Shown in pieces: positions 6,033-40,752 of a DNA stretch of 64,000 nucleotides; positions within the stretch are counted from its first letter, which is position 1; the number at the start of each line of letters is the position of its first letter. Source of the stretch: Armatimonadota bacterium (GTDB taxonomy: Bacteria > Armatimonadota > UBA5829 > DTJY01); NCBI GenBank assembly GCA_017993055.1, contig JAGONM010000002.1, forward strand, positions 68,821 to 132,820. Direction: 5' to 3'. Made by a program: the position numbers and the translations under genes. A model generated the notes under the pieces. That model had not been told where the DNA came from. It did not search any database and saw nothing but the letters and a program-made list of their open reading frames with translations.

Positions 6033-6171
6033 GAGTCGGGTGTTGGGGAATAGGTGCTGGGTCGGCTTACGGTTGATACCCCGAATCAGCCATCCTGCAG
6101 GAGACAGATCGTTTCATGGCGAATGATGTCGAGGTGTGCGCTGCTTAGGAGCACCGGTGGAGGAACTACCC

Positions 6172-6920: not shown

Positions 6921-6962
6921 GAACAACACCAGTCACACTCTACACTCACCACTCCCGACTCC

Positions 6963-7643
6963 TCACTTCTCAATCCGCTGGTCCTCGCGGACGATCTTCC
7001 TCGCGCCGCCTTCGTGCGACTTCGACCAGTTGGCGAGGGGAGCGGGCTCGGCAAGGCGGTCGAGTTGTCCGAGCGCCTTCAGGCGGTCGTAGATCAACTG
7101 CCAGGCGCAGTCCATGTCCGGGTCAACCTCGCATTTCCCCTCGCGAGCGCCGCCGCACGGGCCGCTGAGCTGTGCCTTCGAGCAGCGGGTGATCGGGCAG
7201 ACCGCGCCGTAGCTCCCGAGCACGCACGTCCCGCATCCGACGCACTTCTCGGTCCAGATTCCCTGCTGCTGCAGGAGTCCCATGAACAGCGTATCGAGTC
7301 CGGCGTAGACCGGCTTGTTCGGGAACCGCTCCGCGATCGCCTGAACGCCGACACCGCATCCGAGAGAGAGCACCGCGTCGGCCTCGAGTATCTCGTCGAG
7401 CGCGTCCTCGATGAACTGGTTCTCGCACTGGCGCTCGATTGTGGCCTCGACGATCGTCTGTTCCGACGCGCCCTTGTCCGTCTTGTTCGCGATCCTGAGC
7501 GCGGAACTGATCATCCCGACCTCGCGCTCTCCGCCCGCTAGGCAGACGGTTACGCAAGTGCCGCATCCGAGCACGAGCACGCGCGGGTAATCGGCGAGCA
7601 AGGCCTTCAGGTCCTGTATGTGTTTGCGGTGAGCAACGATCAT
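6963..7643 (-). CDS. metV: methylene-tetrahydrofolate reductase small subunit MetV-like (zinc-ribbon/MTHFR_C-type Cys-rich protein)
   Basis: Cys motifs LGCGTCVTVC, LGCGVGVQ, CVGCGTCV, CPITRCSKAQLSGPCGG...GKCEV are typical of the MTHFR C-terminal-like MetV of acetogen MetFV-HdrABC-MvhD clusters. Start moved from the track start (7679) to ATG at 7643, which has a perfect AAGGAG RBS 6 nt upstream and leaves the 7677-7699 hairpin intergenic. Confidence 0.65.
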   Translation of the reverse strand: MIVAHRKHIQDLKALLADYPRVLVLGCGTCVTVCLAGGEREVGMISSALRIANKTDKGASEQTIVEATIERQCENQFIEDALDEILEADAVLSLGCGVGVQAIAERFPNKPVYAGLDTLFMGLLQQQGIWTEKCVGCGTCVLGSYGAVCPITRCSKAQLSGPCGGAREGKCEVDPDMDCAWQLIYDRLKALGQLDRLAEPAPLANWSKSHEGGARKIVREDQRIEK

Positions 7644-7676
7644 GTCAGACTCCTTTGGGGGAGTGGTCGAGGCCGT

Positions 7677-7699
7677 CATGCTGAACCAAGTTCAGCATG
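7677..7699. repeat. near-perfect palindrome CATGCTGAAC-CAA-GTTCAGCATG in the mvhD-metV junction (intra-operon stem-loop / operator-like)
   Basis: 10-bp arms with 3-nt loop, read directly. A closely related motif recurs at 16584-16634 inside the same operon. Confidence 0.6.
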
Positions 7700-7715
7700 A
7701 CAACGTCCATTACTC

Positions 7716-8132
7716 CTATACTCCAACGCGGACCGGATTCGGTCCCAGGCGCTTGATTCTCTCCGTCATTGTCTCGACTATCTCCGCGAAGCGGTTGCCC
7801 TCAGCCGAAGAGAGGTTGAACATCTCCAGCCGATCGCCCTCGATGCCGGCTTCGGCGAGTACTTCCTTCGCCAGACCGACCCGCTTCTTCGCGTAGAGAT
7901 TGCCCTCCTCGAAGTGGCATCCTCCCTCGAGGCAGCCAGCGACTATCACGCCGTCCACGCCGTTCTCGAAGGCCTTCATGACGTAGTCTATGTCCACCTT
8001 CCCGGTGCACGGGAGGCGCAGGACGCGCACATTCGGCGGATACTGCAGGCGTGTCGAGCCGGCGAGGTCCGCCGCCGCGTATGCGCAGTAATGGCAGCAG
8101 AGAGCAAGGATTCTCGGCTCGAAATCAGTCAT
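7716..8132 (-). CDS. mvhD: MvhD/FlpD-like [2Fe-2S] electron-transfer subunit (methyl-viologen-reducing hydrogenase delta-subunit family)
   Basis: RILALCCHYCAYAAAD ... LPCTGKVD ... AGCLEGGCHF is the characteristic FlpD/MvhD Cys pattern. 138 aa. Start overlaps the hdrA stop. Confidence 0.8.
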   Translation of the reverse strand: MTDFEPRILALCCHYCAYAAADLAGSTRLQYPPNVRVLRLPCTGKVDIDYVMKAFENGVDGVIVAGCLEGGCHFEEGNLYAKKRVGLAKEVLAEAGIEGDRLEMFNLSSAEGNRFAEIVETMTERIKRLGPNPVRVGV

Positions 8133-11100
8133 CAGCGAGTCACCGCCTCCAGGAGGGCTTCGATTGCGGCCTCCAACTGTTTGTCAGTGAAGTTCCGGAG
8201 CTGGATCGCCTTCGCCGGGCAGGCCGCCGCGCAACTTCCGCAGCCCATGCACTTCGCCGCGACGATCTCCACCCTGTTCTTGCCGTTGACCTCGCTGATC
8301 TCGGGGGCGTCGTAAGGGCAGACCTTCACGCAGGTAAGGCATGAGACGCATTTCCGAACGTCCACGTGGCTCACCTGGCCACCGACGACCATAGTCTTCT
8401 TGCTCAGGATCGTCGCAGCGCGTCCCGCGGCCGCTCGTCCCTGCTGGATGTTCTCCATCGTCGTCTTCGGCGAGTGGGCGCTTCCGCAGAGGAAGATGCC
8501 CTCCGATGCGAAGTCCACCGGCCGAAGCTTCACATGCGCCTCGAGGAAGAACCCGTCCGCGTTGATCGGTATCTTCGCAAGCTCCGAGACGTCCACGTTG
8601 TCGGTCGCGGGCGAAGTGCCTGTCGAGAGAACGAGCAGATCGACCGCCAGGTCCATCGGGACGCCGAGGTCGGGCTCGGTGAACTTGATCCGGAGCGACC
8701 CATCGTTCGAGACCTCGGGCGGCTGCTCGGGATCGTACCGTACGAAGAGCACGCCGAGCTCACGCGCCTTCTGGTAGAGCAGTTCGTTCGATCCGTACGT
8801 CCGCATGTCGCGATAGAGAACGAGTACGTTCGCGCTCGGACTCTGTTCCTTGATGCGGATCGCGTTTCTCACGGCGTCAATGCAGCACATTCGGCTGCAG
8901 AACGGCCGCTCTTCATTGCGGGAGCCGACGCACTGGATCATGGCGACAGTCGGCTTGTCGGACAGCTTGAGATCGCCGGACGCGAGCCTCTTCTCCATCT
9001 CTCGCTGAGTCATTACTCTGGCGTCGTGGCCGTAGAGGTACTCGGTCGGGGCGTACTCCGTGCCGCCGACGGCGACTATCAGGACGCCGTGCTCGACCTT
9101 CTTCGGTCCCTCAGGCGCCTCAATCTCGCTCTCGAACTCCCCGACATGGCCCGAAAGCGTGTCGAGCTTCGACGAGAGATACGTCGAGATCAGCGGATGC
9201 TCCTCGACCATCTTGACCAGTCGTGCGAGCAGTTCCGTCTCCGCGGATCCCTTCAGTCGGCCCCCGAGCGCGTCGGTTTTCTCGACCAGATGCACGCGGA
9301 ATCCCTGATTCGCGAGGGAAATCGCTGCCGTCATTCCGCTCGGGCCGCCTCCGAGAACGAGCGCAGACTGAGTGACCGGCAGCTCCTCGCTCGTGAGCGA
9401 TGTCAATCTCGACGCGCGGGCGACGGCCATTCGCACGAGATCAATGGATTTCTCGGTCGCGGCTTCGGGATCGGCCGAATGCACCCACGAGCATTGGTCG
9501 CGGATGTTCGCCATGTCTACTAGGAACGGGTTCAGGCCGCACTCCCTCGCCGTATCTCGGAAAAGCGCCTCGTGAGTCCTCGGCGTGCAGGACGCGACGA
9601 GCAGGCGGTTGAGGTGATGCTCCTCGATCAATTCCTTGATTCGATCCTGCGTGTTGTCGGCGCAGGCGTAGATCGCGTTCTCGGCATAGGCGACGAACGG
9701 CATGCCTTTCGCCGCCTCGACTACCTTCTCGACATCGACGACCGACGAAATGTTCGTGCCGCAATGGCATATGAACACGCCGATCCTCGGCGGCGCATCG
9801 GCGAAATCGTGTTCGCGCGGATAAGTCTTCTCGACGACCATCGTGCCACGGGCGGGCGCAAGAAGCTCCATCGCCATCGCCGCAGCCGCGCTCGCCTGTG
9901 CGACGGTCTCGGGAATGTCCTTCGGCTCCTGGAACGCGCCGGCGACGAAGACACCGTTCCGAGACGTCGCCACCGTGCCGTCGGTCTGGCAGAATCCGCA
10001 CTCATTGATCTGGACGCCGACCGCGCCCGCGGTCCGGATCGCTTCATCGCTCGGCCTTATGCCGGTCGAGAGCACCACGATGTCGAACTCTTCGTCCACC
10101 GGGACTCCGTCCTTGATGTAGGAGAGCCTGAGCGACTTCGAGCCCGGCATCTCGACGACGCGAGAGACCATGCTCCGCTCGAACCGGACACCGTCGGTCT
10201 TCGCGCGCTCGAAGTATCTGTCGAAATCCTTGCCGTACGCGCGGATATCCGTGTAGAAGATCGTTGCGTCGAGTTCGGGGGAGTGGCTCTTCGCCACGAC
10301 CGATTCCTTGATCGCCGCCATGCAGCAGACCGCCGAGCAGTACGGCTTCTCGCTCGACACATCTCTTGAGCCGACGCACTGAATGAAGGCGATGCGCTTG
10401 GCCTCCTCGCCGTCGGACGGCCTGATCACGTGCCCGCCGAACGGCCCGCTCGCGGAGAGAATGCGCTCGAACTGTACGTTGGTGACGACGTTGGGATACC
10501 TCCCGAAGCCGAACTCGCCGCGCAGTCGAGCGTCGAACTCCTCGTATCCGGGCGACAGGATGACCGCACCGACCTCGATGTCGCGGACGGTGTCCTTCAT
10601 CTCGTGGTTGATCGCTTTGGGCTGGCACGCCTTCACACACTCCATGCACTCGCAGCAGATCCCGCAGGCGAGGCATCTCTCCGCCTCGGCGATCGCATCC
10701 GCGACCGCATAGCCCCTGGCGTGATCGGCCTCGACCCTGACGCTCTTCATGCGCTTCTCGCGGTACTGGGCTCTCTCCAGGTTGCGGTGATCGTCGTCGG
10801 TCCAGATGCGCGAATCGGGCTCGCGCCCCTCGGCGAGGTCTTCACCGTTGATGAACCTGTCTATTGATACGGCCGCCCGGATTCCCGCGCCGACCGCCTC
10901 GCTCAAGGTCCCTGCACCCGCGCACACGTCGCCGCCCGCGAAGATGCCCGGCTTGTTGGTGGCGAGGGTGATCGGGTCGACCTTGAGCAGGCCCCACTTG
11001 TTCAACTCGATCTCCGATCCCTCGCAGAATGCGAGGTCCGGCGTCTGGCCCGTCGCCACGACGGCCTCGTCGAATTCTATCATATGCTCGGAGCCCTCGA

Positions 11101-12517
11101 CGGGCTCGGGCCTTCTGCGGCCGGACGCGTCGCGCTCGTCAGAAAGCTTCATCTTGAGGCATTCGATCCCGGTGAGGACGCCGTCCTTGCCCACGAACCG
11201 CTTTGGGTTCGTGAGGAAGACGAACTTCACGCCCTCTTTGATCGCGTCCTCGACCTCCACCGGGTCGGCGGGCATCTCGCGCTTCGTCCGGCGGTAGACG
11301 ATCGTCACTTCGTTCGCGCCGAGCCGGAGCGCGGTGCGTGCGATATCCATTGCCGCGTTGCCAGCTCCGATGACCGCGACCTTCTTGCCGATCTCGACCT
11401 TCTCGCCGAGGTTGACCTGCTTGATGAACTCGATGCCGGGCCGAACGCCCTTGAGGTCTTCGCCCTCGATGCCGAGCCCCGAACTCTTCTGCGCGCCGAC
11501 TCCGACGAAGACTGCCTCGTAATCCTTCAGCAGGTCGTCGAGGGTCAGCCCGGGCCCGACCGGCGTGTCATACTTCACCTCGACGCCGAGATCGAGGATG
11601 TGGCCAATCTGGTCGTCAAGAATGTCTCTGGGAAGTCGGAAGTCGGGGATGCCGGCCCTCATCATGCCGCCCGGGACCGGAAGCGCCTCGAGGATCGTGA
11701 CGCCGTATCCCTTGCGCGCGAGGTAGTCCGCCGCGCCGAGTCCCGCCGGACCGCATCCGATGATCGCGACCCTCTCGGATCGGCTGACAGGAGCGTTCTC
11801 AGTGGTGCCGGCCGGAGCCTGATCGAGCGCGAACTTCTTCAGCTCGCGGATCGAGACCGGATCGCCGTATCGTCCCTGCTGGCATTCGGCCTCGCACGGG
11901 CGATGGCAGACGTAGCCGCAGATGAGGGGCAGGGGATTATCCTTGCGGATGATCTCCGCCGCCTCAGCGAACTTGCTCTTCGCGATCAACGCTATATACG
12001 CCTGAGCGTTCTGGCCCATTGGACACGCCGACACGCACGGCGGGCGCTTGCGTTTGTCGATGACGTGAGCGTTCGGGACCGCCTGCGCGGTAATCTTGTG
12101 GATCGCGGTCGTTTTGCTCAGCCCGCGGTTGAAGTCGTCCGGCACCATGACGGGGCAGACTTTCTCGCAGTCGCCGCACGCGTTGCACTTCTCGATGTCC
12201 ACGAAGCGGGCCTTCTGCCGCACCTTCACGCGAAACGCACCGGGCTCGCCGCTCATCTCTTCGATCTGTGACTGAGTAAGGATCTCGATGTTCAGATTGC
12301 GAGCTGCCTCGACGAGCTTCGGCGAGACGATGCAGGTGGCGCAGTCCCCGGTCGGGAAGGTCTTGTCGAGTTGCGCCATCTTCCCGCCGATGGTCGGCGA
12401 CTTCTCGACGAGGTAGACCCTGAACCCCGAGTTGGCGAGGTCGAGCGCCGACTGAATCCCGGCGATTCCGCCTCCACACACCATTACTGCGCCAACCGTA
12501 TTCTTGTCCGTACTCAT
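8132..12517 (-). CDS. hdrA: giant HdrA-type flavoprotein fusion: HdrA FAD/Fe-S module + embedded GltD/NfnB-like NAD(P)H-FAD module + second HdrA-type module + C-terminal 2x[4Fe-4S] ferredoxin
   Basis: N-terminal GAVMVCGGGIAGIQSALDLANSGFRVYLVEK (FAD). HdrA inserted Cys motif TFPTGDCATCI. GltD/NfnB-like block (DNPLPLICGYVCHRPCEAEC ... RVAIIGCGPAGLGAADYLARKG ... VAVIGAGNAAMDIAR). Two HdrA signatures FIQCVGSRDVSSEKPYCSAVCCMAA and MIQCVGSRNEERPFCSRMCCIDA. Second FAD fold ALVLGGGPSGMTAAISLANQG. C-terminal CVSCLTCVKVCP / CMGCGSCAAACP. 1461 aa. Confidence 0.85.
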   Translation of the reverse strand: MSTDKNTVGAVMVCGGGIAGIQSALDLANSGFRVYLVEKSPTIGGKMAQLDKTFPTGDCATCIVSPKLVEAARNLNIEILTQSQIEEMSGEPGAFRVKVRQKARFVDIEKCNACGDCEKVCPVMVPDDFNRGLSKTTAIHKITAQAVPNAHVIDKRKRPPCVSACPMGQNAQAYIALIAKSKFAEAAEIIRKDNPLPLICGYVCHRPCEAECQQGRYGDPVSIRELKKFALDQAPAGTTENAPVSRSERVAIIGCGPAGLGAADYLARKGYGVTILEALPVPGGMMRAGIPDFRLPRDILDDQIGHILDLGVEVKYDTPVGPGLTLDDLLKDYEAVFVGVGAQKSSGLGIEGEDLKGVRPGIEFIKQVNLGEKVEIGKKVAVIGAGNAAMDIARTALRLGANEVTIVYRRTKREMPADPVEVEDAIKEGVKFVFLTNPKRFVGKDGVLTGIECLKMKLSDERDASGRRRPEPVEGSEHMIEFDEAVVATGQTPDLAFCEGSEIELNKWGLLKVDPITLATNKPGIFAGGDVCAGAGTLSEAVGAGIRAAVSIDRFINGEDLAEGREPDSRIWTDDDHRNLERAQYREKRMKSVRVEADHARGYAVADAIAEAERCLACGICCECMECVKACQPKAINHEMKDTVRDIEVGAVILSPGYEEFDARLRGEFGFGRYPNVVTNVQFERILSASGPFGGHVIRPSDGEEAKRIAFIQCVGSRDVSSEKPYCSAVCCMAAIKESVVAKSHSPELDATIFYTDIRAYGKDFDRYFERAKTDGVRFERSMVSRVVEMPGSKSLRLSYIKDGVPVDEEFDIVVLSTGIRPSDEAIRTAGAVGVQINECGFCQTDGTVATSRNGVFVAGAFQEPKDIPETVAQASAAAAMAMELLAPARGTMVVEKTYPREHDFADAPPRIGVFICHCGTNISSVVDVEKVVEAAKGMPFVAYAENAIYACADNTQDRIKELIEEHHLNRLLVASCTPRTHEALFRDTARECGLNPFLVDMANIRDQCSWVHSADPEAATEKSIDLVRMAVARASRLTSLTSEELPVTQSALVLGGGPSGMTAAISLANQGFRVHLVEKTDALGGRLKGSAETELLARLVKMVEEHPLISTYLSSKLDTLSGHVGEFESEIEAPEGPKKVEHGVLIVAVGGTEYAPTEYLYGHDARVMTQREMEKRLASGDLKLSDKPTVAMIQCVGSRNEERPFCSRMCCIDAVRNAIRIKEQSPSANVLVLYRDMRTYGSNELLYQKARELGVLFVRYDPEQPPEVSNDGSLRIKFTEPDLGVPMDLAVDLLVLSTGTSPATDNVDVSELAKIPINADGFFLEAHVKLRPVDFASEGIFLCGSAHSPKTTMENIQQGRAAAGRAATILSKKTMVVGGQVSHVDVRKCVSCLTCVKVCPYDAPEISEVNGKNRVEIVAAKCMGCGSCAAACPAKAIQLRNFTDKQLEAAIEALLEAVTR

Positions 12518-12526
12518 ACTCGTACT

Positions 12527-13384
12527 CTACCTCGCCAACACTCTCGACGGGTCCGTCATCAACTTCCCGATTCCCAGCTCGTCGTCGGAGAGTCCGAACG
12601 CGTGCCCCAGAAGCTGGGTGAAGTAGAACACCGGCAGGCCGAACTGCTCGCCGGTCGCCTTTTCGATATCCGACTGCCGCAGATCGAGGTTCGTCTGGCA
12701 GAGCGGGCAGGCCACCGCGATGCAGTCCGCTCCGCTCTCCTTGGCCATCCGCAGGATCTCGCCGCTAAGGCGCTTGACGGTGTCGGTTCGCGTGATAGAG
12801 AAACTCGCGCCGCAGCACTCCGTCTTGTACGGCCATTCGATCGGCTCCGCGCCCGCGGCCTCCAGGAGAATTTCCATCAACTGCGGGTCCTCCGGGTGGT
12901 CGGCGATGCTGAGTTCGCTCGGGCGGGTGAGTAGACAGCCGTAGTAGCATGCGACCCTCATCCCGCCGAGGGAGCGCGTGACCGCGTCCTTGACTTCCTT
13001 GGGGCCGATGTCCTCCAGAAGCACCTGCAGCAGATGCCGCACCCTGACCTTGCCCTCGTACTCGCGCCCGATCGTCTTCGCCACCTCAGCGCGCAGCGAC
13101 TCATCCTCTCTTATCGCAAGGTTCGCCGAAGCGAGCCGTCCGTAGCAGGCCGCGCAGCACACGACTACGTCCTGACCGGCGTCCTCGGCGATCGCCAGGT
13201 TTCGGGCTGGAAGCGACGCCGCCAGCAGAGGATCCGTGGCATGAGCCGGAGACGATCCACAGCACGTCCAGCCGGGAATCTCCTCGAGCCTGACTCCGAG
13301 CGCCTTGGCGACTGCGAGTGTCGAGGCCTGGAAGTCCGAAGCCGTCGATTCGAGCGAGCATCCCGGGAAGAAGGAGTATTTCAT
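12527..13384 (-). CDS. hdrB: heterodisulfide reductase subunit B-like (two CCG domains)
   Basis: CCG-domain Cys signatures WTCCGSS, VVVCCAACYG, CYYGCLLTRP, ECCGASFS, ACPLCQTNLD. 285 aa. Confidence 0.85.
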   Translation of the reverse strand: MKYSFFPGCSLESTASDFQASTLAVAKALGVRLEEIPGWTCCGSSPAHATDPLLAASLPARNLAIAEDAGQDVVVCCAACYGRLASANLAIREDESLRAEVAKTIGREYEGKVRVRHLLQVLLEDIGPKEVKDAVTRSLGGMRVACYYGCLLTRPSELSIADHPEDPQLMEILLEAAGAEPIEWPYKTECCGASFSITRTDTVKRLSGEILRMAKESGADCIAVACPLCQTNLDLRQSDIEKATGEQFGLPVFYFTQLLGHAFGLSDDELGIGKLMTDPSRVLAR

Positions 13385-13944
13385 CGCCGTGCCCTCCTTG
13401 CGTTCCGGACTCTCTCAAAGATCGAGGCCACCGCGCCGCGTCCCTCGGTCGATGGCGGGAGAAGCTTCATCTTGCCCTTCAGCAACATCGACGGGAACTT
13501 GGCGAGATCGCTCCAGAAGTCTCTCGCCCGGAGCTTGTATACGGCCATGAGCCCGAGTTCATACGACCGGCCGAACCGCTTCACCGAGCCGAGCATCGTC
13601 TCGTTGAAGATCTTCACGCGTTCCAGGTCGCCGGGCGCCGACTCCGCCATCGAGCGCAGAGCATCCACCAGGGCAGGGGTATCAACCTGCATCGGGCAGC
13701 GCGACACGCAGGTGTTGCACGATATGCACGCCCAGATCGCCTTGCTCTCGAGGATCTGCTTCTTCATCCCCAGCGCGGCCATCCGGTTGAGCTGATGCGG
13801 AAGGATATCCGTCTCTTGGCGCATCGTGCAGCCCGACGAGCATCTTCGGCACTGCAGGCAGAGCGTCAGGTTCAGCCGCCCTTCAGGGTCGACCTCCCTG
13901 AGCAGGCCATTGTCTATCCTCTCAATGGTGATTGTCTTACTCAT
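13381..13944 (-). CDS. hdrC: heterodisulfide reductase subunit C-like (2x[4Fe-4S] ferredoxin)
   Basis: CLQCRRCSSGCTM and CISCNTCVSRCPM motifs. Start refined to ATG at 13944 (MSKTITIE...), which overlaps the upstream gene stop by ATGA. The longer track ORF would run 111 nt into the upstream CDS. Confidence 0.75.
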   Translation of the reverse strand: MSKTITIERIDNGLLREVDPEGRLNLTLCLQCRRCSSGCTMRQETDILPHQLNRMAALGMKKQILESKAIWACISCNTCVSRCPMQVDTPALVDALRSMAESAPGDLERVKIFNETMLGSVKRFGRSYELGLMAVYKLRARDFWSDLAKFPSMLLKGKMKLLPPSTEGRGAVASIFERVRNARRARR

Positions 13945-16558
13945 CTGATCCCTTACCAGCGTTCGAATCATCGTCCACGTGGCCGACGACCCCGACCTTC
14001 GACGCCGGAGCGACCTTTCGGTAGACCTTCGCCGGCTCGCGAAGTTCTCCGTCAACCGTCAGCAGCCGGGAGACCGGGATGCCGAAGAGTTGCTCGTTGT
14101 CCTCGAGATACGGCAGGATCAGCTTCCAGTCCGCATCTGACAACTCGCGGTACTCGCCGCCGTTGAGCTGTTCGTCGTCGCACAGCCGATGCGGGTCTCG
14201 GACGTAGATCGCTCCACCCGAGGCCAGCGAGAACAGGTTCGAGCCGGAGTACGGCGTCTCCAGGTCGGTGACGTTGCCGTCATCATCGAACTTGATGCCG
14301 TTCAGTATGACGAACCCCCCGCCCGTGAGCGGATCGCCCGCCATGAATGATTCCGCCAGGAAGTCGAGGCATGTGCCGTTGATGACCGCTTTCGGCCGTC
14401 CCACGCCGTTGATCAACGGTCGTCCGGCGGCGTTGCCCTTGACGAAGACCTTGCCGCCCTTCGCGCCGTACATGAACGTCTGGCCGACGTCGCCGTGGAT
14501 CACGAGGCGGCCTTCCTTGATGATCTGGCCGACCTGGTCTTGGGCGTTCCCATGAACGATGACCGTCATGCCGTCGAGGCCCGAGCCTAGGTAGTCGCCG
14601 GTGCTCCCGTAGGCGTCTATGGTGACATCGTGCGTCGCCGGGCCGAACCCGCAGCCGAGGAACCTCTGCCCCACGTAGCCGTGGCAGATGAACCGCTTCC
14701 ATCCCAGTTCCTCAGCTCTGACCACCAGCCGGGAGTCGCAGTCGTCGCCCTCGGGCGGGAAGTCGTGCGCGTTCACGACGAGCACTTCCTCCGGGCCAGT
14801 GGGGGCGCGGAGCGCATCCCTGGTCTCCCAGTCGATGCGCGCATATACTGAAGAGGGTTCTCCGGCGATAGACGGCATGGACTCGAAGACCGCTCTCAGG
14901 CATCCGTTCAGCAGCTGGAGGATCGTGCTTCGCTTGGTCGTTCCGGTCGGATACCGGCGGTCGATCAAGAGAGTCAGTCCGTTGATCGCGGCCGTGCGCT
15001 CGGAGTCAGTCATCGGACCGGCGGCCAACTCGGAGCACAGGCTCACCAATCCCTTCATCTCCGCCGTCAGAGCCGCCGACTTCCCGGCCTCGAAAAGCGC
15101 GAATCCGGTCTCATCAGCAAGAATCTCGGCGGTCGCGTGTCCCAGTCTGCAATCCGCGATCTGCAGTCTGCAGTCCGGCCTCTCGCCCGCCTTGACTGTC
15201 TTCTGCCTTCCAAACTTATCCACGCAGGAGAGCTTGTAGCCGCCGTTGCCGTCCGGACTCACGTTGAAGATGAACGATCCGCCGTCGGTGTAGCTTCCTC
15301 CGCGGGCGTTCCAGTACTCATCGGCGACCGTGCAGAACCGACTGTCTTCCTTCGCCAGGCTCGCGAGTGTGGCGTCGATGGCTTGCTTTTCGCTGCAGAC
15401 AAGGCCGATCTGCACCTCGCCGTCCTGGATCGCGAACACCTGAGGCCGAAGCATCGCCGTGTCCGTGATGCCTAGGAGTTGGAACGCATCGTTCGCCGCG
15501 TCGTTGCGTGCAATGATGAAGAACCACGGACCGTCCGGCGAGCCGTGGATGTGGCTCGTCTGGATGCGGTGGTACGGGTCCTTCTTCGCTTCGGGCAGCA
15601 TATCGAAGTCGCGCTCCATCGTAGGCGCAAGGCCCTCGATGATGTACTCCAGCGGGTACTTGTACACACGGTTCCAGAGGTCAAACACGAGGATCGAGAC
15701 CTCGGTGTCCGTCAGGAAGAGCGGCCTGATGTTCCTCTGAGCCAAGTACTCGGTTACCGAATAGTAGTTCGCGAAGTCGCCGTTGTGGACCAGCGCCTCG
15801 TTCAGCCCGCAGAACGGGTGAGCGCCGCCGGGATGCCAGACTCGACCGCGAGTCGGGTATCGCTGGTGGGCGATCCAGACGTGCGCCTTGAAATCCTCGA
15901 GCTTGTAGTATGTGACGATCTGCTCGGCATAGCCGACGATCTTGAGGATCAGCATGTTCCGTCCCTGCGAGAGGACGAAAGCCTGCTTGTCACCGAGCGA
16001 TGCGTAGTACTTCGAGTTGAGCTCGAACGAGTTCTGGTTGACGAACTCATCCTCGATGTCTCGTGCCGGCAGTCCGGCCAGGCCGCGCTCGTCGGCAAAC
16101 TTCTTGATGGCATCGGGCTTCGCGCGCACGAAGTACTGCATGACGTCCGGCGGCTGGACCTCCATGCCCGGGATATCGTGGAAATCCTCGATTCGCGGGA
16201 TCATCTGCGCGTGGTCGACGTTGAACATCGGGTTGATGAACTCGGCTTCGACGGCGTTACGGCAGGCAGGATCGAGAAGTGCGATCTGCAGGATGTAGTC
16301 ATCCCGCAGAATCTCTTTCGAGACCCCAAGCCGCTCGGCATCGAGCCCGACGGCCGCGATGCCTCCGCCCTTACCGTTGCCGCGGTTGTGCATCTGGACA
16401 GACGGCTCGTAGATGTGCCTGCCGCTTACCGGGATGCTGCACGCGAACCCGGTGACCCCGCAGCCGCCTTCCTCCTCGGTGTGAGGAGGCTGCTGGCATT
16501 TCCATCCGTCCATCATCCAGCGTCGGCTCTCTAAGATTCTCTTCGCGAAATCGTTCAT
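13937..16558 (-). CDS. glutamate-synthase-like fusion: N-terminal class-II glutamine amidotransferase domain (GltB1-type) + C-terminal GXGXG domain (GltB3-type)
   Basis: N-terminal GGCGVTGFAC (Ntn Cys) ... HQRYPTRG ... LVHNGDFANY are GATase-2 motifs. C-terminal GCGFGPATHDVTIDAYGSTGDYLGSGLDGMTVIVHGNAQDQVGQIIKEGRLVIHGDVGQTFMYGAKGGKVFVKGNAAGRPL is the glutamate-synthase GXGXG domain. 873 aa. Confidence 0.75.
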   Translation of the reverse strand: MNDFAKRILESRRWMMDGWKCQQPPHTEEEGGCGVTGFACSIPVSGRHIYEPSVQMHNRGNGKGGGIAAVGLDAERLGVSKEILRDDYILQIALLDPACRNAVEAEFINPMFNVDHAQMIPRIEDFHDIPGMEVQPPDVMQYFVRAKPDAIKKFADERGLAGLPARDIEDEFVNQNSFELNSKYYASLGDKQAFVLSQGRNMLILKIVGYAEQIVTYYKLEDFKAHVWIAHQRYPTRGRVWHPGGAHPFCGLNEALVHNGDFANYYSVTEYLAQRNIRPLFLTDTEVSILVFDLWNRVYKYPLEYIIEGLAPTMERDFDMLPEAKKDPYHRIQTSHIHGSPDGPWFFIIARNDAANDAFQLLGITDTAMLRPQVFAIQDGEVQIGLVCSEKQAIDATLASLAKEDSRFCTVADEYWNARGGSYTDGGSFIFNVSPDGNGGYKLSCVDKFGRQKTVKAGERPDCRLQIADCRLGHATAEILADETGFALFEAGKSAALTAEMKGLVSLCSELAAGPMTDSERTAAINGLTLLIDRRYPTGTTKRSTILQLLNGCLRAVFESMPSIAGEPSSVYARIDWETRDALRAPTGPEEVLVVNAHDFPPEGDDCDSRLVVRAEELGWKRFICHGYVGQRFLGCGFGPATHDVTIDAYGSTGDYLGSGLDGMTVIVHGNAQDQVGQIIKEGRLVIHGDVGQTFMYGAKGGKVFVKGNAAGRPLINGVGRPKAVINGTCLDFLAESFMAGDPLTGGGFVILNGIKFDDDGNVTDLETPYSGSNLFSLASGGAIYVRDPHRLCDDEQLNGGEYRELSDADWKLILPYLEDNEQLFGIPVSRLLTVDGELREPAKVYRKVAPASKVGVVGHVDDDSNAGKGSDE

Positions 16559-16583
16559 GTTATCTCACTACGACCGTCGTGCC

Positions 16584-16634
16584 GAACTTGGTTCAGCATC
16601 CACGGGATTGATCCTGAGTCAAGTTCAGGATGAC
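16584..16634. repeat. two copies of the GAACTTGGTTCAGCAT / CAAGTTCAGGATGAC palindromic motif family in the gltB2-gltB1/3 junction
   Basis: 16584-16599 GAACTTGGTTCAGCAT is identical over 16 nt to the reverse complement of the 7677-7699 element. 16611-16634 ATCCTGAGTCAAGTTCAGGATGAC contains CAAGTTCAGGATGAC, versus CAAGTTCAGCATGAC at 7688-7702. Both sit in a 91-nt gap between translationally uncoupled genes of the same operon. Confidence 0.6.
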
Positions 16635-16649
16635 GGTCCTTGCCGTTCG

Positions 16650-18188
16650 TCAACGCTCGTAGTCCGCATGCTCGAGGAGATCGGATCTCCCTCGAAGCTC
16701 CTTGATATCCTTCATGCCGAACCTGCTCAGTATGTCCACGAGTTGAGTGCGCCACGCGTTCAGCATGTTGATCAGCCGCTGCGTCGCCCACTCGAGCGTC
16801 ATCTTCTCGACCATCTCCGGGTTCGTGGATGCGATGCCTCGCGCGCATCCCTTGCCGCTCTCGCACCTGGCGCAGCGTATACATCCCAGTGCGACCATCT
16901 CCGGCGTGCCTATCACCACACCGTCCGCCCCGAGGGCGATCGCCTTCGCCAGGTCCCACGGCGTGCGCACCCCGCCTCCGACGATGAAGGCCACCTCGTC
17001 CCGGATGCCTTCCTCGACCAGGAAAGTGTGCACCTTGGAGATCGCGTATTCTATCGGCATGGCAATGTTTTTCTTTGCGATCTCTGGGGCAGCTCCCGTC
17101 CCGCCATAACTCCCGTCGAGGTGGATGATGTTTGCGCCTGCGTGATAGGAGCCGACGGCAACCATGTCCACGTCAACCGGGGTCGAGACCTTGCACGAGA
17201 CGAGCGCTCGCGGGTTGATGTGCTTTATCCAGTCCAGATGCTTCTTGTGGTCCTCGACGGAGTAGACGCTGTGGAAAGGGAACGGCGAGAAGAGCGGGGT
17301 CCCCGGCACTGCCTCGCGCATCAGGGCGACGGCGGGCGTATTCTTGTCGCCGAGCAGATGTCCGCCGAGGCCCGGCTTCGCTCCCTGCGCGTACTTGAAC
17401 TCGACAATCGGCGCCATACCGATCGTCTCCTCGCGCACGCCGAACAGGCCCGTCGCCACCTGGGTGATCATGTGCTCGCTGTACGGGAACAGCCGCTCGG
17501 GATAGCCTCCCTCGCCTGTACAACTGAACGTGTTCCATGCCATCGCCGCCCGGGCCTTGGCCAGCATGGTGATGGGGCTGACGGAGCCGAACGACATGCC
17601 GCCGCCGTAGACGGGGATGTCTATGGTGATCTCCGGCCTGCCGTCCTTGCGTTTGTTCAGTTCGATCGAGGTGTTGATCTCGGACGGGTCGGTACGCGGG
17701 CCGCTCTCGGGGAACAGGAACCGCATTCGGTCGAAGCCGCCCCCGGAATTGCCGAACTCCGCCTCCAGTTCTCCGTCGGGCACCTGCCCGGTCTCGGCCA
17801 TGTGCCAGTTGCAGAGTATCAGGTCGGCGGTCCACCGGTAGTCCCCGAGCGACTTGTAGATCGGGGTAGTCTCGATGCGGAGCGCCTTCTGAGGGCAGAT
17901 TACGACGCAGTACGTCCCGTTCGCCTTGCACTTCTCGGCGGTGCACAGATGATCCAACCCGCTGAGGAAGTCCACGTAGCCTTCTCGGCGCACGTGAACG
18001 CCGCGCGGGCAGACCTCGATGCACTTCCCGCACTTGATGCATGCCGCGCTCCGTTGGATGCGGTACTTGCTGAGGTTGTTCCGGAACCTGTCGGGCGCCG
18101 GACGGACCTCGCGCTTCGGGGGGTATTCCACCCCGAGATCCGCAACTTTCCCCGTATGTATCCTGCCTGGATCTATGGTCGAAGCCAT
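16650..18188 (-). CDS. archaeal-type glutamate synthase FMN/Fe-S subunit (GltB2-like) with N-terminal 2x[4Fe-4S] ferredoxin domain
   Basis: N-terminal CIKCGKCIEVCP ... CVVICP. FMN/synthase domain motifs GGGMSFGSVSPITMLA, IIHLDGSYGGTGAAPE, IVGGGVRTPWDLAKAIALGADGV, and a Cys cluster CIRCARCESGKGC. 512 aa. Confidence 0.8.
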   Translation of the reverse strand: MASTIDPGRIHTGKVADLGVEYPPKREVRPAPDRFRNNLSKYRIQRSAACIKCGKCIEVCPRGVHVRREGYVDFLSGLDHLCTAEKCKANGTYCVVICPQKALRIETTPIYKSLGDYRWTADLILCNWHMAETGQVPDGELEAEFGNSGGGFDRMRFLFPESGPRTDPSEINTSIELNKRKDGRPEITIDIPVYGGGMSFGSVSPITMLAKARAAMAWNTFSCTGEGGYPERLFPYSEHMITQVATGLFGVREETIGMAPIVEFKYAQGAKPGLGGHLLGDKNTPAVALMREAVPGTPLFSPFPFHSVYSVEDHKKHLDWIKHINPRALVSCKVSTPVDVDMVAVGSYHAGANIIHLDGSYGGTGAAPEIAKKNIAMPIEYAISKVHTFLVEEGIRDEVAFIVGGGVRTPWDLAKAIALGADGVVIGTPEMVALGCIRCARCESGKGCARGIASTNPEMVEKMTLEWATQRLINMLNAWRTQLVDILSRFGMKDIKELRGRSDLLEHADYER

Positions 18189-18200
18189 CTAAAACCCCTG

Positions 18201-19556
18201 TCAGATCTGAACTTTCCGTGTTCCGAAGATCGGGCCGAAGCAGTCCCGTTCCAGGTCCTCGAAGAACATCGCACGGCCGACTTCCCCGCGGAGCCGTCGA
18301 ACCTCGCGTATGCCCATCGCCCCCATCATCTCCAGCAACTGGCTGTGCCACGCACCGATCAGGTTCACGATCCTCTGAACGGCGTAGTCGTGATCAATGT
18401 CCGCCAGCCCGACCGGGCACTGGATACCTTCGGTGCAGTTCCTGCACACCCGGCACTCGAGGGCAATCATCAGCGGGATGTCAACTGCAACCGCATCGGC
18501 GCCGCAGATTATCGTTTTTGCCACATGTTCGGCGAGCGCGATCCCACCACTGGAGACGATCGTAACGGCATCCCGGTTTCCACGTTCGACGAAAGCCTGG
18601 TGGAGCGCCTGCACGGCCCTTGTGATGTGAGTTCCGTCGGTTGCGTTCCCGTGCCAGTCGGCACAGGAGTGGATCGCATCTACGCCTTGTTCCGTGAGTT
18701 CGAGTGCCCGTGCGATCGAGTCGGCACCGAGCGGTAGACGCACCATGGCGACCAGATCACCGTTGGCCTCTCTTGCCTGTCGGACCTGTCGGACCACGTC
18801 GGACGAGTCGGACCATTCCACGAGTGGCGCGCCCGAAGGGATGGCGCCGTCTCTCACGTGCGGTGCGGCCGCATCGTGATCCATCTGCGTATCGGTTACT
18901 GCCCGTGTTCCCAGCGCCTCGGCGGCGTCGAGCATCGCTCTCGTCACCTGCTCCGACGGGGTGTGCCAGGGCAGGAGGTCGAAAAGGATCGGAATCGGCA
19001 CGTCAATCTGTGTCGGATACGGCTCAGCAAGCGAACCATCGGGGTTGAACGAGAGCGACGGGAGTTTCCTGCCGATCTCGACCTGCGTGCTGATGTACTC
19101 CCTGCCGTGGATTCCGTCGCGCGTCGGGCGGACGATTTCCGACATGTCGGTCAGGATCGCGTCGAACCCCGGGCCCATGAACGGGCCGGCGTAACCTGCG
19201 CCCGACACGGGTATCCTGCCGGTCTCTGCCTGGAACCAGGTGCCGGATATGATGTCCGGCGTCCAGACCCCGTCGCCAAGCCCCTCGAACTCCGGGTTGA
19301 CCTCCTGGGTCAGCAGGCCTTTTGTGCAGGATTGCACGCAGCAGAGGCATCCCTTGCACTCGTAGAGGTAGTCAACGTAGTCGCTTGCGCCCTGAAGCCT
19401 GTCGCGCTCACCGTCGTATACGCTGTAAGCGCACTCCCGCTTCACGCAGTTGTGGCAGGCGGAGCAGTCCTCTCTCCAGTCAACTATCCCGTATTTGCCG
19501 ATCACCTTGTGTTTCGGCGGCGCCTGCGCAGTGTGGATATGGTACTTGGCCGGCAT
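18201..19556 (-). CDS. divergent GltB2-like paralog (ferredoxin + glutamate-synthase-like TIM barrel with degenerate FMN/active-site motifs)
   Basis: Same architecture as 16650-18188 (N-terminal CSACHNCVKREC ... CKGCLCCVQSC, C-terminal CRVCRNCTEGIQC, SSGGIALAEHVAKTIICGADAV). The GGGMSFG and DGxxGGTG motifs are not recognisable. Confidence 0.55.
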   Translation of the reverse strand: MPAKYHIHTAQAPPKHKVIGKYGIVDWREDCSACHNCVKRECAYSVYDGERDRLQGASDYVDYLYECKGCLCCVQSCTKGLLTQEVNPEFEGLGDGVWTPDIISGTWFQAETGRIPVSGAGYAGPFMGPGFDAILTDMSEIVRPTRDGIHGREYISTQVEIGRKLPSLSFNPDGSLAEPYPTQIDVPIPILFDLLPWHTPSEQVTRAMLDAAEALGTRAVTDTQMDHDAAAPHVRDGAIPSGAPLVEWSDSSDVVRQVRQAREANGDLVAMVRLPLGADSIARALELTEQGVDAIHSCADWHGNATDGTHITRAVQALHQAFVERGNRDAVTIVSSGGIALAEHVAKTIICGADAVAVDIPLMIALECRVCRNCTEGIQCPVGLADIDHDYAVQRIVNLIGAWHSQLLEMMGAMGIREVRRLRGEVGRAMFFEDLERDCFGPIFGTRKVQI

Positions 19557-19557
19557 G

Positions 19558-20406
19558 CTACTTCAGACCCTTCAGAACTTCAAGGGCGAGTGTGGGATTT
19601 CCGCCGATCACGTGGATGCCGCGGACGCCTTCGATGCCCTTGAGGAAGGCGGCCGTCTTCGCGGCCGAATCGGCCCCGACCGCCGAGGTATCCGGTATGT
19701 CGAGCCCCCGGAATTTCGCGACCATTGCCGACGCCTCCTCCGCAGACTCCAGCGGCATGACGGAAGCGATCACGCACATCTTCTCATGGATGCCGCGCGC
19801 TCTGACGAGGCCCATCCACTCCTCGAAGCGATTGGTGTTGAATACGGGTTGGGTGATGACGAAATCGGCTCCGAGAGCTGCCGCCCTGTCGAGTGTGATG
19901 ACCTGCAGATCAAGCGGGTCCGAGAACGGGTTGGTCTCCACCCCGAGCAGCATCTCGACCGGAGCATCCAGGGGTTCACCGTCGGAGAGTCTTCCGCCCC
20001 TTCTCATGGTGTCGGCCACTTGAACGAGCTGCAGGGGGTCTATGTCGTAGACTCCTCTTGCGTCGCCGGCCGATGTCAAAGTCTGATGCTTGCCTGCGAG
20101 GCAGAGGATGTTGCGTATGCCCATCGAGGCCGCCCCCAGCAAGGTTGACTGGAGGGCGATCCGGTTGAGGTCGCGTGTCAGGATGTGTAGGATCGGCTCG
20201 GCTCCCGCTTCCAGGACATGCCCGCATGCGGCGAGGCTGCTCATGCGGGGGCCGTCCTCGCTCTCGATGACGTTGACTGCGTCCACGAGAGCGTTGAGCC
20301 GGGTCGCGCACTCCTTGATTCCGGCCGCGTCCGCGCCTCTCGGCGGGTGGCACTCGCCCGTGACTACGAACTTACCGCCCTTTACTGCCTGCGCCAGATC
20401 ACTCAT
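19558..20406 (-). CDS. metF: 5,10-methylenetetrahydrofolate reductase catalytic subunit (acetogen/MetF-type)
   Basis: About 280 aa TIM barrel with FVVTGECHPP, LLGVETNPF, DFVITQPVFNTNRFEEW motifs typical of MTHFR. 2-nt gap to the upstream gene. Confidence 0.8.
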   Translation of the reverse strand: MSDLAQAVKGGKFVVTGECHPPRGADAAGIKECATRLNALVDAVNVIESEDGPRMSSLAACGHVLEAGAEPILHILTRDLNRIALQSTLLGAASMGIRNILCLAGKHQTLTSAGDARGVYDIDPLQLVQVADTMRRGGRLSDGEPLDAPVEMLLGVETNPFSDPLDLQVITLDRAAALGADFVITQPVFNTNRFEEWMGLVRARGIHEKMCVIASVMPLESAEEASAMVAKFRGLDIPDTSAVGADSAAKTAAFLKGIEGVRGIHVIGGNPTLALEVLKGLK

Positions 20407-20798
20407 TCAGTCACCTCGTCTGCGAAACGCGTCATCTCATCAACCGCCGAGTCGAAACTGCGCGGCTCCATACTGCCCGGCTGGAACATCCGGACGCAGT
20501 CGGGACCCAGGCCCGATTCTGTAAGATACTCGCGTGCGGTCTCCATGCGCTTGCCGGCCCTCAAATTCCCCTCCAGCAACCTGCACTCGCCTTCGGGGCA
20601 GGCGAGCAGGCATACCTTGGAAGCGCCGCCCTCGAATGCCTTCAGGATGTAGCGGGGGTCAATCCGCCCGCTACACGGCACCGGTTCGATCGCGACGTCG
20701 GGCCGATGTCCCAGCTTCGCCAGCGAATCCGGGACCCGTCCGTTCGGAACGGAGTTGCGGCAGTAGTACACGCGGACAGCTATTCGGTCTCCCTGCAT
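20403..20798 (-). CDS. mvhD: second MvhD/FlpD-like [2Fe-2S] subunit, first gene of the operon
   Basis: RIAVRVYYCRNSVPNG ... PCSGRIDPRYILKAFEGGASKVCLLACPEGECRL is FlpD/MvhD-like. Start set to the in-frame ATG at 20798, because the track start at 20840 is GTG on the printed sequence. Stop overlaps the metF start (ATGA). Confidence 0.7.
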   Translation of the reverse strand: MQGDRIAVRVYYCRNSVPNGRVPDSLAKLGHRPDVAIEPVPCSGRIDPRYILKAFEGGASKVCLLACPEGECRLLEGNLRAGKRMETAREYLTESGLGPDCVRMFQPGSMEPRSFDSAVDEMTRFADEVTE

Positions 20799-20831
20799 AT
20801 TCGGTGTCCCCGTCTCCCAGACAATGCAAAG

Positions 20832-20871
20832 CCCACCCACAATCCACCTGTCCCGGTGGTACTATGGGTGG
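20832..20871 (-). promoter_or_regulatory. structured 5' leader of the operon (nested hairpins CCCACCCA...TGGGTGG / CCACC...GGTGG)
   Basis: Nested inverted repeats read directly. They lie between the predicted promoter (about 20960-20988) and the mvhD2 ATG (20798). Confidence 0.35.
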
Positions 20872-20959
20872 ACTCCCAATCGTCCTTCCTGGGCAAGACT
20901 GCGGTGAATCACTCAGGCCAGATCACGCACGCGGCCGCCGTCGGCCACGCTGCAGAGAC

Positions 20960-20988
20960 AGTATACGCTACACTGGAGCGGATGTCAA
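20960..20988 (-). promoter_or_regulatory. sigma70-like promoter of the hdr/glt/met operon (TTGACA-17 nt-TATACT on - strand)
   Basis: Reverse complement of 20983-20988 is TTGACA. Reverse complement of 20960-20965 is TATACT. Spacer is 17 nt. Located about 160-190 nt upstream of the first ATG, in a 180-nt gene-free gap. Confidence 0.45.
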
Positions 20989-21020
20989 CTGCTGAGGCAC
21001 GCTCGAGGAGTCCGGGCCGC

Positions 21021-40739: not shown

Positions 40740-40752
40740 CATTCGACGAAGA

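Follow-up and report, generated by a model that had tools for sequence, protein, structure and literature searches.

What does a glutamate synthase have to do with the electron-transfer genes of a methylenetetrahydrofolate reductase (MTHFR)? The question is raised by a stretch of 64,000 nucleotides (nt) from contig JAGONM010000002.1 of an Armatimonadota metagenome-assembled genome (MAG), referred to here as the window, in which the minus strand carries a head-to-tail row of ten genes (positions 6963 to 20840). In the order of transcription these are mvhD2, metF, gltB2′, gltB2, gltB1/3, hdrC, hdrB, hdrA, mvhD and metV; the three glutamate synthase genes gltB2′, gltB2 and gltB1/3 are referred to below as the trio. 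A first-pass annotation of the window had proposed these ten genes, their order and their span, which are reproduced by open reading frame (ORF) calls with no internal stop in any of the ORFs, and each of its domain assignments is upheld by the Pfam and NCBIfam profile searches on which the gene identities given here are based. The reading developed below is that the operon encodes one functional unit, in which a glutamate synthase (GltS) is fed by an NAD(P)H-oxidising Hdr/MvhD/MetV module, possibly with bifurcation of electrons to ferredoxin. We judge this reading to have about an even chance of being correct.

The gltB1/3 gene (13937–16558) encodes an 873-residue GltB1–GltB3 fusion (Pfam GATase_6, 2.9e-5; GXGXG, 1.8e-15), consisting of an N-terminal nucleophile (Ntn, class II) amidotransferase domain with a 32-residue propeptide preceding Cys33, a variable linker and a GXGXG β-helix. 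Canonical GltS α subunits likewise bear a propeptide before Cys1. Three motifs are invariant in 61 sequences: GGC33GV, HNG (258–260) within HNGDFANY, and TDTE (283–286). The protein thus has the N-terminal Cys nucleophile, the Asn-Gly oxyanion hole and the glutamine-binding Asp (D284) that characterise class II amidotransferases. In the AlphaFold model (mean predicted local distance difference test score (pLDDT) 80.6, predicted template modelling score 0.83) the β-helix occupies residues 620–800. The closest matches of the model in the Protein Data Bank (PDB) are GltS α subunits (1ea0_A, 8e-12; 2vdc, 7mfm, 6s6s and 1ofd), followed by GlmS and PurF.

The GltS flavin mononucleotide (FMN) or synthase subunit is encoded by gltB2 (16650–18188; Fer4 and Glu_synthase, 9.2e-90) and carries an N-terminal ferredoxin domain of the 2×[4Fe-4S] type. 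It aligns with residues 856–1170 of A. brasilense GltS α (9e-48), and comparison with 2vdc_A indicates that the 2-oxoglutarate site (AQGAK...R) has kept its Gln, Lys and Arg. Two stretches of GltB2 (residues 264–282 and 433–452) differ from canonical GltS. The family signature is AQGAKPGLGGHLLG, in place of the canonical AQGAKPGEGGQLPG. In the active-site motif E is exchanged for L, Q for H and P for L, and throughout the family a His takes the place of the Gln in GGQL. In addition, the canonical [3Fe-4S] motif Cx5Cx4C is replaced by a four-Cys motif, CxxCxxCx5C, in which the three canonical Cys are present together with a fourth. Both the signature and the four-Cys motif are invariant in 74 GltB2 orthologues and, given the invariant fourth Cys, the cluster is likely to be of the [4Fe-4S] rather than the [3Fe-4S] type.

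The third member of the trio, gltB2′ (18201–19556), encodes an Fe-S-rich paralogue of the GltS FMN subunit, in which Pfam Glu_synthase (2.4e-16) matches the C-terminal half only and a weak Glu_syn_central match is also found. In GltB2′ a TIM barrel is combined with two clusters of Cys in the N-terminal part and with a CxxCxxCx5CP motif; it has Cys residues that are invariant among homologues. A protein of an Armatimonadetes MAG matches GltB2′ with 100% identity. Residues 160–410 of its AlphaFold2 model form a confident FMN-type TIM barrel, for which Foldseek returns FMN α-hydroxy-acid oxidases and GltS α subunits; the N-terminal Fe-S part has a pLDDT below 50 and nothing is inferred from it. 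GltB2′ may be a stand-in for the GltS central domain, or an electron (Fe-S) relay. The Glu_synthase, GXGXG and GATase_6 matches and the structural matches to GltS α subunits thus place the trio in the glutamate synthase family, as had been proposed. The further description of the trio as a split GltS of the archaeal type holds in that the synthase is split, but not in its division into three polypeptides, since GltB1 and GltB3 are fused and an extra GltB2 paralogue is present. In relatives, too, GltB1 and GltB3 always form one protein, and the extra GltB2′ is found in every case. Four proteins of 2200–3150 residues (P0391, P0420, P0450 and P0484) contain a GltB1/3-like stretch with 32–39% identity and may be fused full-length variants of the trio synthase.

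The genes that surround the trio in other genomes point to the same function. Clustering of all flanking ORFs at 82 loci reveals, as recurrent neighbours other than Hdr, Mvh and Met genes, the glutamine synthetase GlnA (15 loci), the ammonium transporter Amt (9 loci) and PII (9 loci), and further CarA, CarB, PurF and a sigma-54 activator. GlnA, Amt or PII are adjacent in 16 metagenome loci too. The score of the neighbouring GlnA exceeds the type I cut-off of TIGR00653, and that of the transporter exceeds the TIGR00836 cut-off. Because glnA, amt, PII, carAB and purF recur beside it, the trio very probably encodes a true glutamate synthase of the glutamine-dependent kind. In two metagenome loci (L118 and L154) the genes immediately upstream of mvhD-metV-metF-trio are Amt-PII-GlnA, and complete Hdr-containing clusters have Amt-PII pairs or GlnA on their upstream side at L140, L110 and L097, so that the MetV and Hdr genes, besides the trio, are found in ammonium-assimilation neighbourhoods. 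A 524-residue Glu_synthase-like protein (PF01645, 6e-13; no NCBIfam match) is encoded upstream of glnA-mvhD-trio at L006 (2369–3943), and the same protein is present at L002, L009, L048 and L052.

The association of the trio with MvhD, MetV and Hdr genes is widespread. At least 596 species-representative genomes and 556 or more metagenome stretches contain the GltB1/3 fusion, which is highly conserved, with an identity across phyla of at least 58% among the matches listed; those matches (E-value 1e-30 or better) form at least 297 clusters at 50% identity. The flanks were surveyed by tblastn with the ten window proteins, and loci with at least 5 kb of upstream sequence were taken as informative (56 genome and 38 metagenome loci). 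An MvhD-like gene lies beside the trio in 49 of the 56 genome loci and 37 of the 38 metagenome loci, and MetV, with or without MetF, in 42 and 33, respectively. HdrA-type genes are present in 15 genome and 14 metagenome loci, and the ten-gene order is complete in 10 of those 15 genome loci. The order mvhD-metV-metF-trio without Hdr genes was observed in 17 genome and 17 metagenome loci, mvhD-metV-trio in five and two, mvhD-trio-metV-metF in six and none, mvhD-trio in seven and five, and the trio alone in six and none. No metF is found within 10 kb in the five genome loci with the order MvhD-MetV-trio.

At least four distinct gene orders thus link the trio to MvhD, MetV or Hdr genes, and the coupling of the Glt genes to the Hdr/MvhD/MetV genes, suspected from the window, is strongly supported by conserved synteny across phyla in several independent arrangements. 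The exact ten-gene order itself recurs in at least seven phyla. It is carried by MAGs that are labelled Armatimonadota, Chloroflexota (Dehalococcoidia/Chloroflexia), Planctomycetota (Phycisphaerales and Sedimentisphaerales), Acidobacteriota (Bryobacterales), Hydrogenedentota or Sumerlaeota, and by one deltaproteobacterial MAG. The trees of MetF, MetV and MvhD show matching groupings, which argues that the cluster has been inherited as a unit.

The electron-transfer half of the operon contains the genes of a complete HdrCBA-MvhD module. The hdrC gene (13381–13944) encodes a 2×[4Fe-4S] subunit with two CxxCxxCxxxC motifs (Fer4_17/Fer4_8; TIGR03290). The product of hdrB (12527–13384; TIGR03288, 7e-63) has two CCG domains (4.1e-25, two stretches) of the non-cubane [4Fe-4S] type, with both CX(n)CCG...CxxC motifs intact. 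The hdrA gene (8132–12517) encodes a 1461-residue protein of the long, Moorella-type form ('HdrL'), which matches the HdrA2 model at 4e-283 and GltD-type models at ~1e-105. Next to it, mvhD (7716–8132) encodes a canonical [2Fe-2S] MvhD (FlpD, 5e-50, full length; NF045873, 6.8e-53). A divergent MvhD/FlpD-like small Fe-S protein is encoded by mvhD2 (20403–20798; FlpD, 1.3e-23), which keeps only four Cys, aligned with the ligand positions of MvhD. MvhD-family proteins are HdrA-associated adaptors in Mvh-Hdr and Fdh-Hdr complexes.

The domains of HdrA were mapped by PDB alignments to 5odc_A (M. thermolithotrophicus HdrA, MtHdrA) and to NfnA/GltD chains. Residues 12–156 and 621–834 form one HdrA flavin domain (half 1), split by an insert (approximately residues 157–620) that resembles the flavin adenine dinucleotide (FAD)/NAD(P)H module of GltD/NfnB and contains two Fe-S motifs, the FAD motif GxGxxG and the dinucleotide motif GAGNAA. 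In half 2 (909–1455), residues 909–1058 correspond to the HdrA N-terminal domain, and residues 1251–1455 to the last part of a second flavin domain together with the C-terminal ferredoxin domain. Over its whole length the protein has the FAD motif GxGxxG three times and GAGNAA once. The bifurcation signature E356/K409 of MtHdrA is found in half 1 as E684/K737; the corresponding residues of half 2 are E1175/R1217.

The GltD/NfnB-like module within HdrA, which had been regarded as a special feature of this operon, is already published for Moorella thermoacetica (PMC9430772) and for HdrL (PMC2702500). The M. thermoacetica HdrA described by Kremp et al. has 1487 residues, three sites for FAD and a single one for NAD(P)H, with an extra TrxR-like domain that is split by the GltD domain and a C-terminal half without the inserted ferredoxin domain (PMC9430772), and the domain map of the window protein fits this description. 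The long HdrA with a GltD-like insert has been called HdrL in sulfate reducers (PMC2702500, PMC5947623), and in archaea it goes by the name of type III HdrA (PMC12054007). The Moorella HdrA, which has the same architecture as the window protein, oxidises NADH (PMC9430772). At L087 and L088 the order mvhD2-metF-trio-hdrC-hdrB is kept and the GltD-like insert of HdrA is swapped at the identical insertion point. Both inserts being NAD(P)H-oxidising modules, the exchange argues for NAD(P)H as the electron donor. In these two loci (17300–21407 and 18014–21416, respectively) a NuoE-like protein is fused to the equivalent of HdrA residues 1–123 and is followed by a NuoF-like protein, and the remainder of HdrA is fused to an Fe-S part that resembles the N-terminus of NuoG; the module resembles the BamGHI/Bfu type.

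The window HdrA also appears to be specific to this context. All three HdrA homologues with 52–53% identity that were looked up sit inside the GltS/MetV cluster, and among the loci examined the window HdrA subfamily (at least 50% identity) occurs only in that cluster. A 47%-identical HdrL of a different subfamily is present at L086 (1–22721), in an unrelated large Hdr gene island with an NiFe hydrogenase, an FAD-linked oxidase, an LplA-like ligase, several HdrBC pairs and a second HdrL. In an acidobacterial locus (L059, 12592–12692) a long hdrA directly follows gltB1/3, and hdrC and hdrB are missing there; HdrBC may therefore be dispensable or encoded elsewhere.

The Met genes of the operon show a different picture, in which one subunit appears to be losing its original function. 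The metV gene (6963–7679) encodes the Fe-S/zinc subunit of MetVF-type MTHFRs (PF12225, MTHFR_C/DUF5981, 1.1e-34), with 13 Cys including CxxCxxxC and CxxCxxC motifs; a solved structural relative was sought and none was found. The product of metF (19558–20406) is a flavoprotein with the acetogen-type MTHFR fold (MTHFR, 1.2e-18; MTHFR half of PRK08645, 6.7e-41). It is remote from the solved MTHFRs, to which its PDB matches are marginal, but three functional positions still align unambiguously: E18, K106 and Q186 are the equivalents of E28, D120 and Q183 of the Escherichia coli enzyme, so that the E/D/Q triad is not fully kept. In E. coli MTHFR, E28 is the catalytic acid, Q183 is a ligand of the pterin N1/NH8, and D120 is a bidentate ligand of the pterin N3 and exo-NH2 groups; the D120N variant retains 0.3% of kcat and 0.01% of kcat/Km (PMC11094777).

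The triad was counted in 77 MetF sequences from the fetched loci, including that of the window, of which 31 are of the ten-gene type and 46 are not. It is intact in 8 of the 31 ten-gene-type sequences versus 45 of the 46 others. Among those 46 genes, 45 have metV immediately upstream, and one follows the trio in a locus with no Hdr genes and no preceding metV. In the ten-gene type the D120 position is occupied by T, Y, W, K, R, Q, H or N, and substitutions of the Gln are frequent as well. This scatter suggests relaxed selection on the folate chemistry in a gene that is still retained. Judged from its residues, MetF is decaying within the ten-gene arrangement. The MetF of the window is probably inefficient as a methylenetetrahydrofolate (methylene-THF) reductase, methylene-THF probably being no longer a good substrate here, and it may be kept as a flavin or scaffold subunit. 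Both acceptors may still be served by the complex where a lineage has kept the triad. Two loci, L050 (4885–21983) and L110, have the layout mvhD-metV-metF-trio-hdrC-hdrB-hdrA-mvhD-metV-metF, with two full MetVF sets, and all four of their MetF copies keep E/D/Q. This layout may be the ancestor of the ten-gene order. In neighbour-joining trees the MetF and MetV of the ten-gene type each form a clade of their own, a topology that does not distinguish an origin from an L050/L110-like arrangement, by loss of one metV and one metF, from other origins.

On the observed gene content, motifs, folds, synteny and MetF decay a mechanism can be built, in which we infer complex formation, the electron donor, the direction of electron flow and bifurcation. 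The complex would comprise two parts. The first, the glutamate synthase, would consist of GltB1/3, GltB2 (with FMN and Fe-S clusters) and GltB2′. The second, for electron input, would consist of HdrC, HdrB, the long HdrA, MvhD and MetV, together with MvhD2 and the MetF-like flavoprotein; the Hdr/MvhD/MetV module would have evolved from, or together with, an Hdr-type MTHFR. NAD(P)H would be oxidised at the GltD-like FAD module inside HdrA, and the electrons would pass to the HdrA flavin bearing the bifurcation signature. MvhD, MvhD2, MetV and the ferredoxin domains of GltB2′ and GltB2 would then relay them to the GltB2 FMN, at which 2-iminoglutarate, formed from 2-oxoglutarate and glutamine-derived ammonia, would be reduced to glutamate. 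A parallel reduction of ferredoxin by the HdrA core, through flavin-based electron bifurcation, is plausible and is the least certain step.

The midpoint potential (E0′) of the couple 2-oxoglutarate + glutamine/2 glutamate can be estimated from textbook free energies at approximately −50 to −100 mV. The methylene-THF couple lies at −200 mV (PMC9430772). With its more positive estimated potential the glutamate couple would make an excellent high-potential branch for an NAD(P)H-driven reduction of ferredoxin. A bifurcating glutamate synthase, which splits the electrons of NAD(P)H between 2-iminoglutarate, whose reduction is very exergonic, and ferredoxin, whose reduction is endergonic, by means of a domesticated Hdr-type MTHFR module, with MetF as a non-catalytic relay in many lineages, is put forward here as a tentative possibility.

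Several observations weigh against a single electron-coupled unit, or against parts of it. The trio is accompanied only by MvhD in 12 informative loci and has no partner in six; the synthase can exist without adjacent Hdr or MetV genes, and ferredoxin alone might be its donor. Glutamate synthesis is exergonic enough that bifurcation is unneeded. The Hdr-type MTHFR complex itself was never purified intact from Sporomusa ovata, and its mechanism and second substrate are not settled (PMC9430772). HdrB retains its disulfide-reducing cluster motifs, which hints at some further substrate, and with the active-site differences and the four-Cys motif of GltB2 the exact chemistry of the synthase could differ. 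Finally, no nitrogen genes flank the operon in the window, where the flanks consist of glycosidases and sulfatases.

The main rival of the single unit is a pair of independent, co-regulated enzymes, namely an Hdr-type MTHFR and a ferredoxin-dependent GltS that draws on ferredoxin through MvhD2 as a small Fe-S subunit, with no exchange of electrons between the two. The loci with MvhD alone (seven genome and five metagenome) or with no partner (six) fit this arrangement, as do the ferredoxin-type domains of GltB2 and GltB2′ themselves, and MetVF enzymes take reduced ferredoxin in vitro (PMC9430772). It accords poorly, however, with an association that persists through four or more gene orders and in at least seven phyla, and with the five MvhD-MetV-trio loci that have no metF within 10 kb. 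In the ten-gene type, moreover, the glt and hdr genes separate metF from metV, and MetF loses its folate residues yet stays in the operon, which would be surprising if selection acted on a free-standing MTHFR. The MvhD family is, in addition, known for adaptors of HdrA. Two uncoupled enzymes therefore seem unlikely to us.

The first-pass annotation had envisaged a bifurcating or confurcating supercomplex that serves two real acceptors, methylene-THF at MetFV and 2-oxoglutarate plus glutamine at GltS. All parts of both reductases are indeed encoded together, L050 and L110 surround the trio and the Hdr genes with two complete MetVF sets, eight of the 31 ten-gene-type MetF proteins keep E/D/Q, and the window MetF retains Glu18, the equivalent of the catalytic Glu28. 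For the organism of the window this proposal is nevertheless weakened by the Lys (K106) at the pterin-binding Asp, a position at which even the substitution D120N leaves the E. coli enzyme with 0.01% of its kcat/Km (PMC11094777). The variety of residues at this position over the ten-gene type (T, Y, W, K, R, Q, H and N) points to relaxed selection. The demands for glutamate and for methyl groups are, moreover, very unequal, which would make an obligatory 1:1 coupling implausible. A dual-acceptor complex is thus rather improbable here.

Even less probable is that the trio is not a GltS, but a related amidotransferase/FMN enzyme, such as an N-methylglutamate-synthase-like or another 2-oxo-acid aminating enzyme. 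The altered active-site motif (E to L, Q to H, P to L), the four-Cys cluster motif and a GATase domain so divergent that Pfam GATase_6 matches at merely 2.9e-5 would suit such an enzyme. They are outweighed by the neighbours, which include a true type I GlnA, AmtB, PII, CarAB and PurF, by the top structural matches to GltS α subunits and by the conservation of the Lys and Arg for 2-oxoglutarate. An external input of electrons is, in addition, implied by the Fe-S domains and MvhD. N-methylglutamate synthase requires no external electron input. This enzyme (MgsABC) was rejected on gene context, as no gmaS, mgd or sarcosine-oxidase-like genes occur among the recurrent neighbours.

A GltS driven by methyl-THF, with oxidation of methyl-THF at MetF and passage of its electrons via MetV, MvhD2 and GltB2′ to GltB2, is thermodynamically feasible (−200 mV to approximately −50 to −100 mV) and would suit the 17 genome and 17 metagenome loci with MvhD-MetV-MetF-trio, E/D/Q kept and no Hdr, but is scarcely credible for the window, where D120 is Lys, or in view of the five loci with MetV and no MetF, the repeated joining of the cluster by HdrA-type genes in varied forms (L018, L040, L082 and L087) and the lack of an obvious physiological reason to tie nitrogen assimilation to the supply of methyl-THF.

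A single unit in which NAD(P)H feeds the glutamate synthase can also be compared with the systems known to contain its parts. The Hdr-type (type IV) MTHFR of M. thermoacetica and S. ovata (PMC9430772; PMC5736913) has an identical hdrC-hdrB-hdrA-mvhD-metV order and shares with the window MetV, an acetogen-type MetF and intact HdrB and HdrC motifs. Unlike that system, the window operon has its metF at the 5′ end, with the pterin-binding Asp lost, and contains a second mvhD and three glutamate synthase genes as insertions; its host is a polysaccharide-degrading Armatimonadota MAG with no Wood-Ljungdahl genes in 64 kb. With HdrL and type III HdrA (PMC2702500, PMC5947623, PMC12054007) the window HdrA shares the GltD-like insert and the adjoining MvhD and HdrBC, whereas the partners in those clusters are Fe-S proteins, POR and hydrogenase. 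The MvhAGD-HdrABC and Fdh-Hdr complexes (5odc, 7bkb) likewise have the E356/K409 signature, an MvhD adaptor and HdrBC with non-cubane clusters. In contrast to these methanogen complexes, no hydrogenase, formate dehydrogenase or CoM-S-S-CoB metabolism is found here, the donor is probably NAD(P)H, and the window HdrA is a covalent pseudo-dimer.

The synthase half shows an equally mixed relationship to known enzymes. It resembles GltBD and ferredoxin-GltS (1ea0, 6s6s, 1ofd) in the Ntn domain with its propeptide-masked Cys1, the GXGXG β-helix, the 2-oxoglutarate Lys and Arg of the FMN domain and the presence of a GltD-type FAD/NAD(P)H module in the system. Unlike in GltBD, however, the α subunit is split and permuted into GltB2′, GltB2 and GltB1/3, a four-Cys motif takes the place of that for the [3Fe-4S] cluster, extra ferredoxin domains are present, and the GltD-like module lies within HdrA rather than in a free β subunit. 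In the archaeal split GltS and the F420-linked GltS clusters of ANME (PMC9012536), too, the amidotransferase and the FMN subunit are separate polypeptides, the latter with a ferredoxin domain at its N-terminus, and there is no classical β subunit. They differ from the trio in that GltB1 and GltB3 are fused here and an additional degenerate GltB2 paralogue is present; the partners in the F420-linked clusters are FrhB-like proteins (PMC9012536), in place of the MvhD, MetV and Hdr found here. Every part of the operon belongs to a known family, and what appears to be new is the conserved union of a split GltS with MvhD, MetV, MetF and Hdr. In agreement with the earlier impression that a system of this composition had not been described, the open-access literature searched yielded separate parts only, namely HdrL, type III HdrA and the Hdr-type MTHFR, and no description of a GltS plus MetVF/Hdr cluster, nor of the decay of MetF inside such a cluster.

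The layout of the operon suggests that the ten genes are likely to be carried on a single transcript. With refined starts, the spacings between successive genes are −4, +1, +12, +91, −8, −4, +9, −1 and +36 nt, and the overlaps of stop and start codons, such as the 8 nt shared by the gltB1/3 stop and the hdrC start, suggest co-translation. The most likely start of hdrC is ATG 13944 (187 residues) rather than TTG 14055, which had been chosen earlier; that of mvhD2 is ATG 20798 (131 residues), in an ORF that can be extended to GTG 20840. The promoter and the terminator were both found where they had been placed before the first and after the last gene. A sigma-70-like promoter, TTGACA-17 nt-TATACT (20960–20988, minus strand; 11 of 12 positions match), lies in the intergenic region 5′ of mvhD2 and is the sole promoter-like site between 6000 and 22000. 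A hairpin resembling an intrinsic terminator (6887–6921, minus strand; 11 bp, 7 GC), followed by TTTTCATTTT, lies 42 nt past the metV stop. The counts of promoter- and terminator-like sites do not exceed the shuffled expectation, so that only the placement and strength of these two carry weight. No sigma-54 promoter was found upstream of the operon, sigma-54-like matches across the window being below the chance count. The 5′ leader of approximately 155 nt between the promoter and the probable mvhD2 start (20799–20959, minus strand) contains no recognised RNA element; a search for riboswitches and other known RNAs by an Rfam E-value scan gave one chance-level miRNA match only.

The remainder of the window encodes six sulfatases, GH116, GH4, GH32/43-like, DUF2961 and BNR proteins, a secretin and a subtilase, and on this gene content the host is a polysaccharide-degrading heterotroph. 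No Wood-Ljungdahl or nitrogen genes are found near the operon in the 64-kb window. The six sulfatase genes (36541–45222 and 51701–53302) are interleaved with DUF2961, GH32/43-like and BNR genes, and these stretches look like a region for the utilisation of sulfated polysaccharides. Just upstream of the operon promoter lies an ORF of 141 residues (21021–21446, minus strand) with a lipoprotein-like signal, MRRYMQSVSMLILLMLIIGCG. On the opposite side, a URO-D-family-like ORF (4908–6032, plus strand; weak match, 8e-7), of a family that includes corrinoid methyltransferases, and an ORF of 233 residues (6136–6837, plus strand) converge on the operon terminator. Four tRNA genes are clustered at 63653–63977 (plus strand).

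If the tentative bifurcating reading is true, the operon would encode the first bifurcating enzyme of nitrogen assimilation, and would provide a physiological partner for the enigmatic bacterial HdrCBA-MvhD-MetV module. The donor of the ferredoxin-domain ('archaeal-type') GltS is not established, and the cluster offers MvhD, MetV and an HdrA with an NAD(P)H module as candidates. Conversely, the synthase would be a second conserved client for the bacterial HdrCBA-MvhD module, whose role in acetogens remains unsettled. Metagenome surveys score MetF, MetV, MvhD and Hdr as markers of the Wood-Ljungdahl pathway or acetogenesis, and in surveys of this kind the clusters described here, in which MetF is often decayed, would count as false positives. 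If bifurcation does take place, the assimilation of ammonium would return energy to energy-limited anaerobes of many phyla, including Armatimonadota, Planctomycetota, Acidobacteriota, Chloroflexota, Hydrogenedentota, Sumerlaeota and Desulfobacterota.

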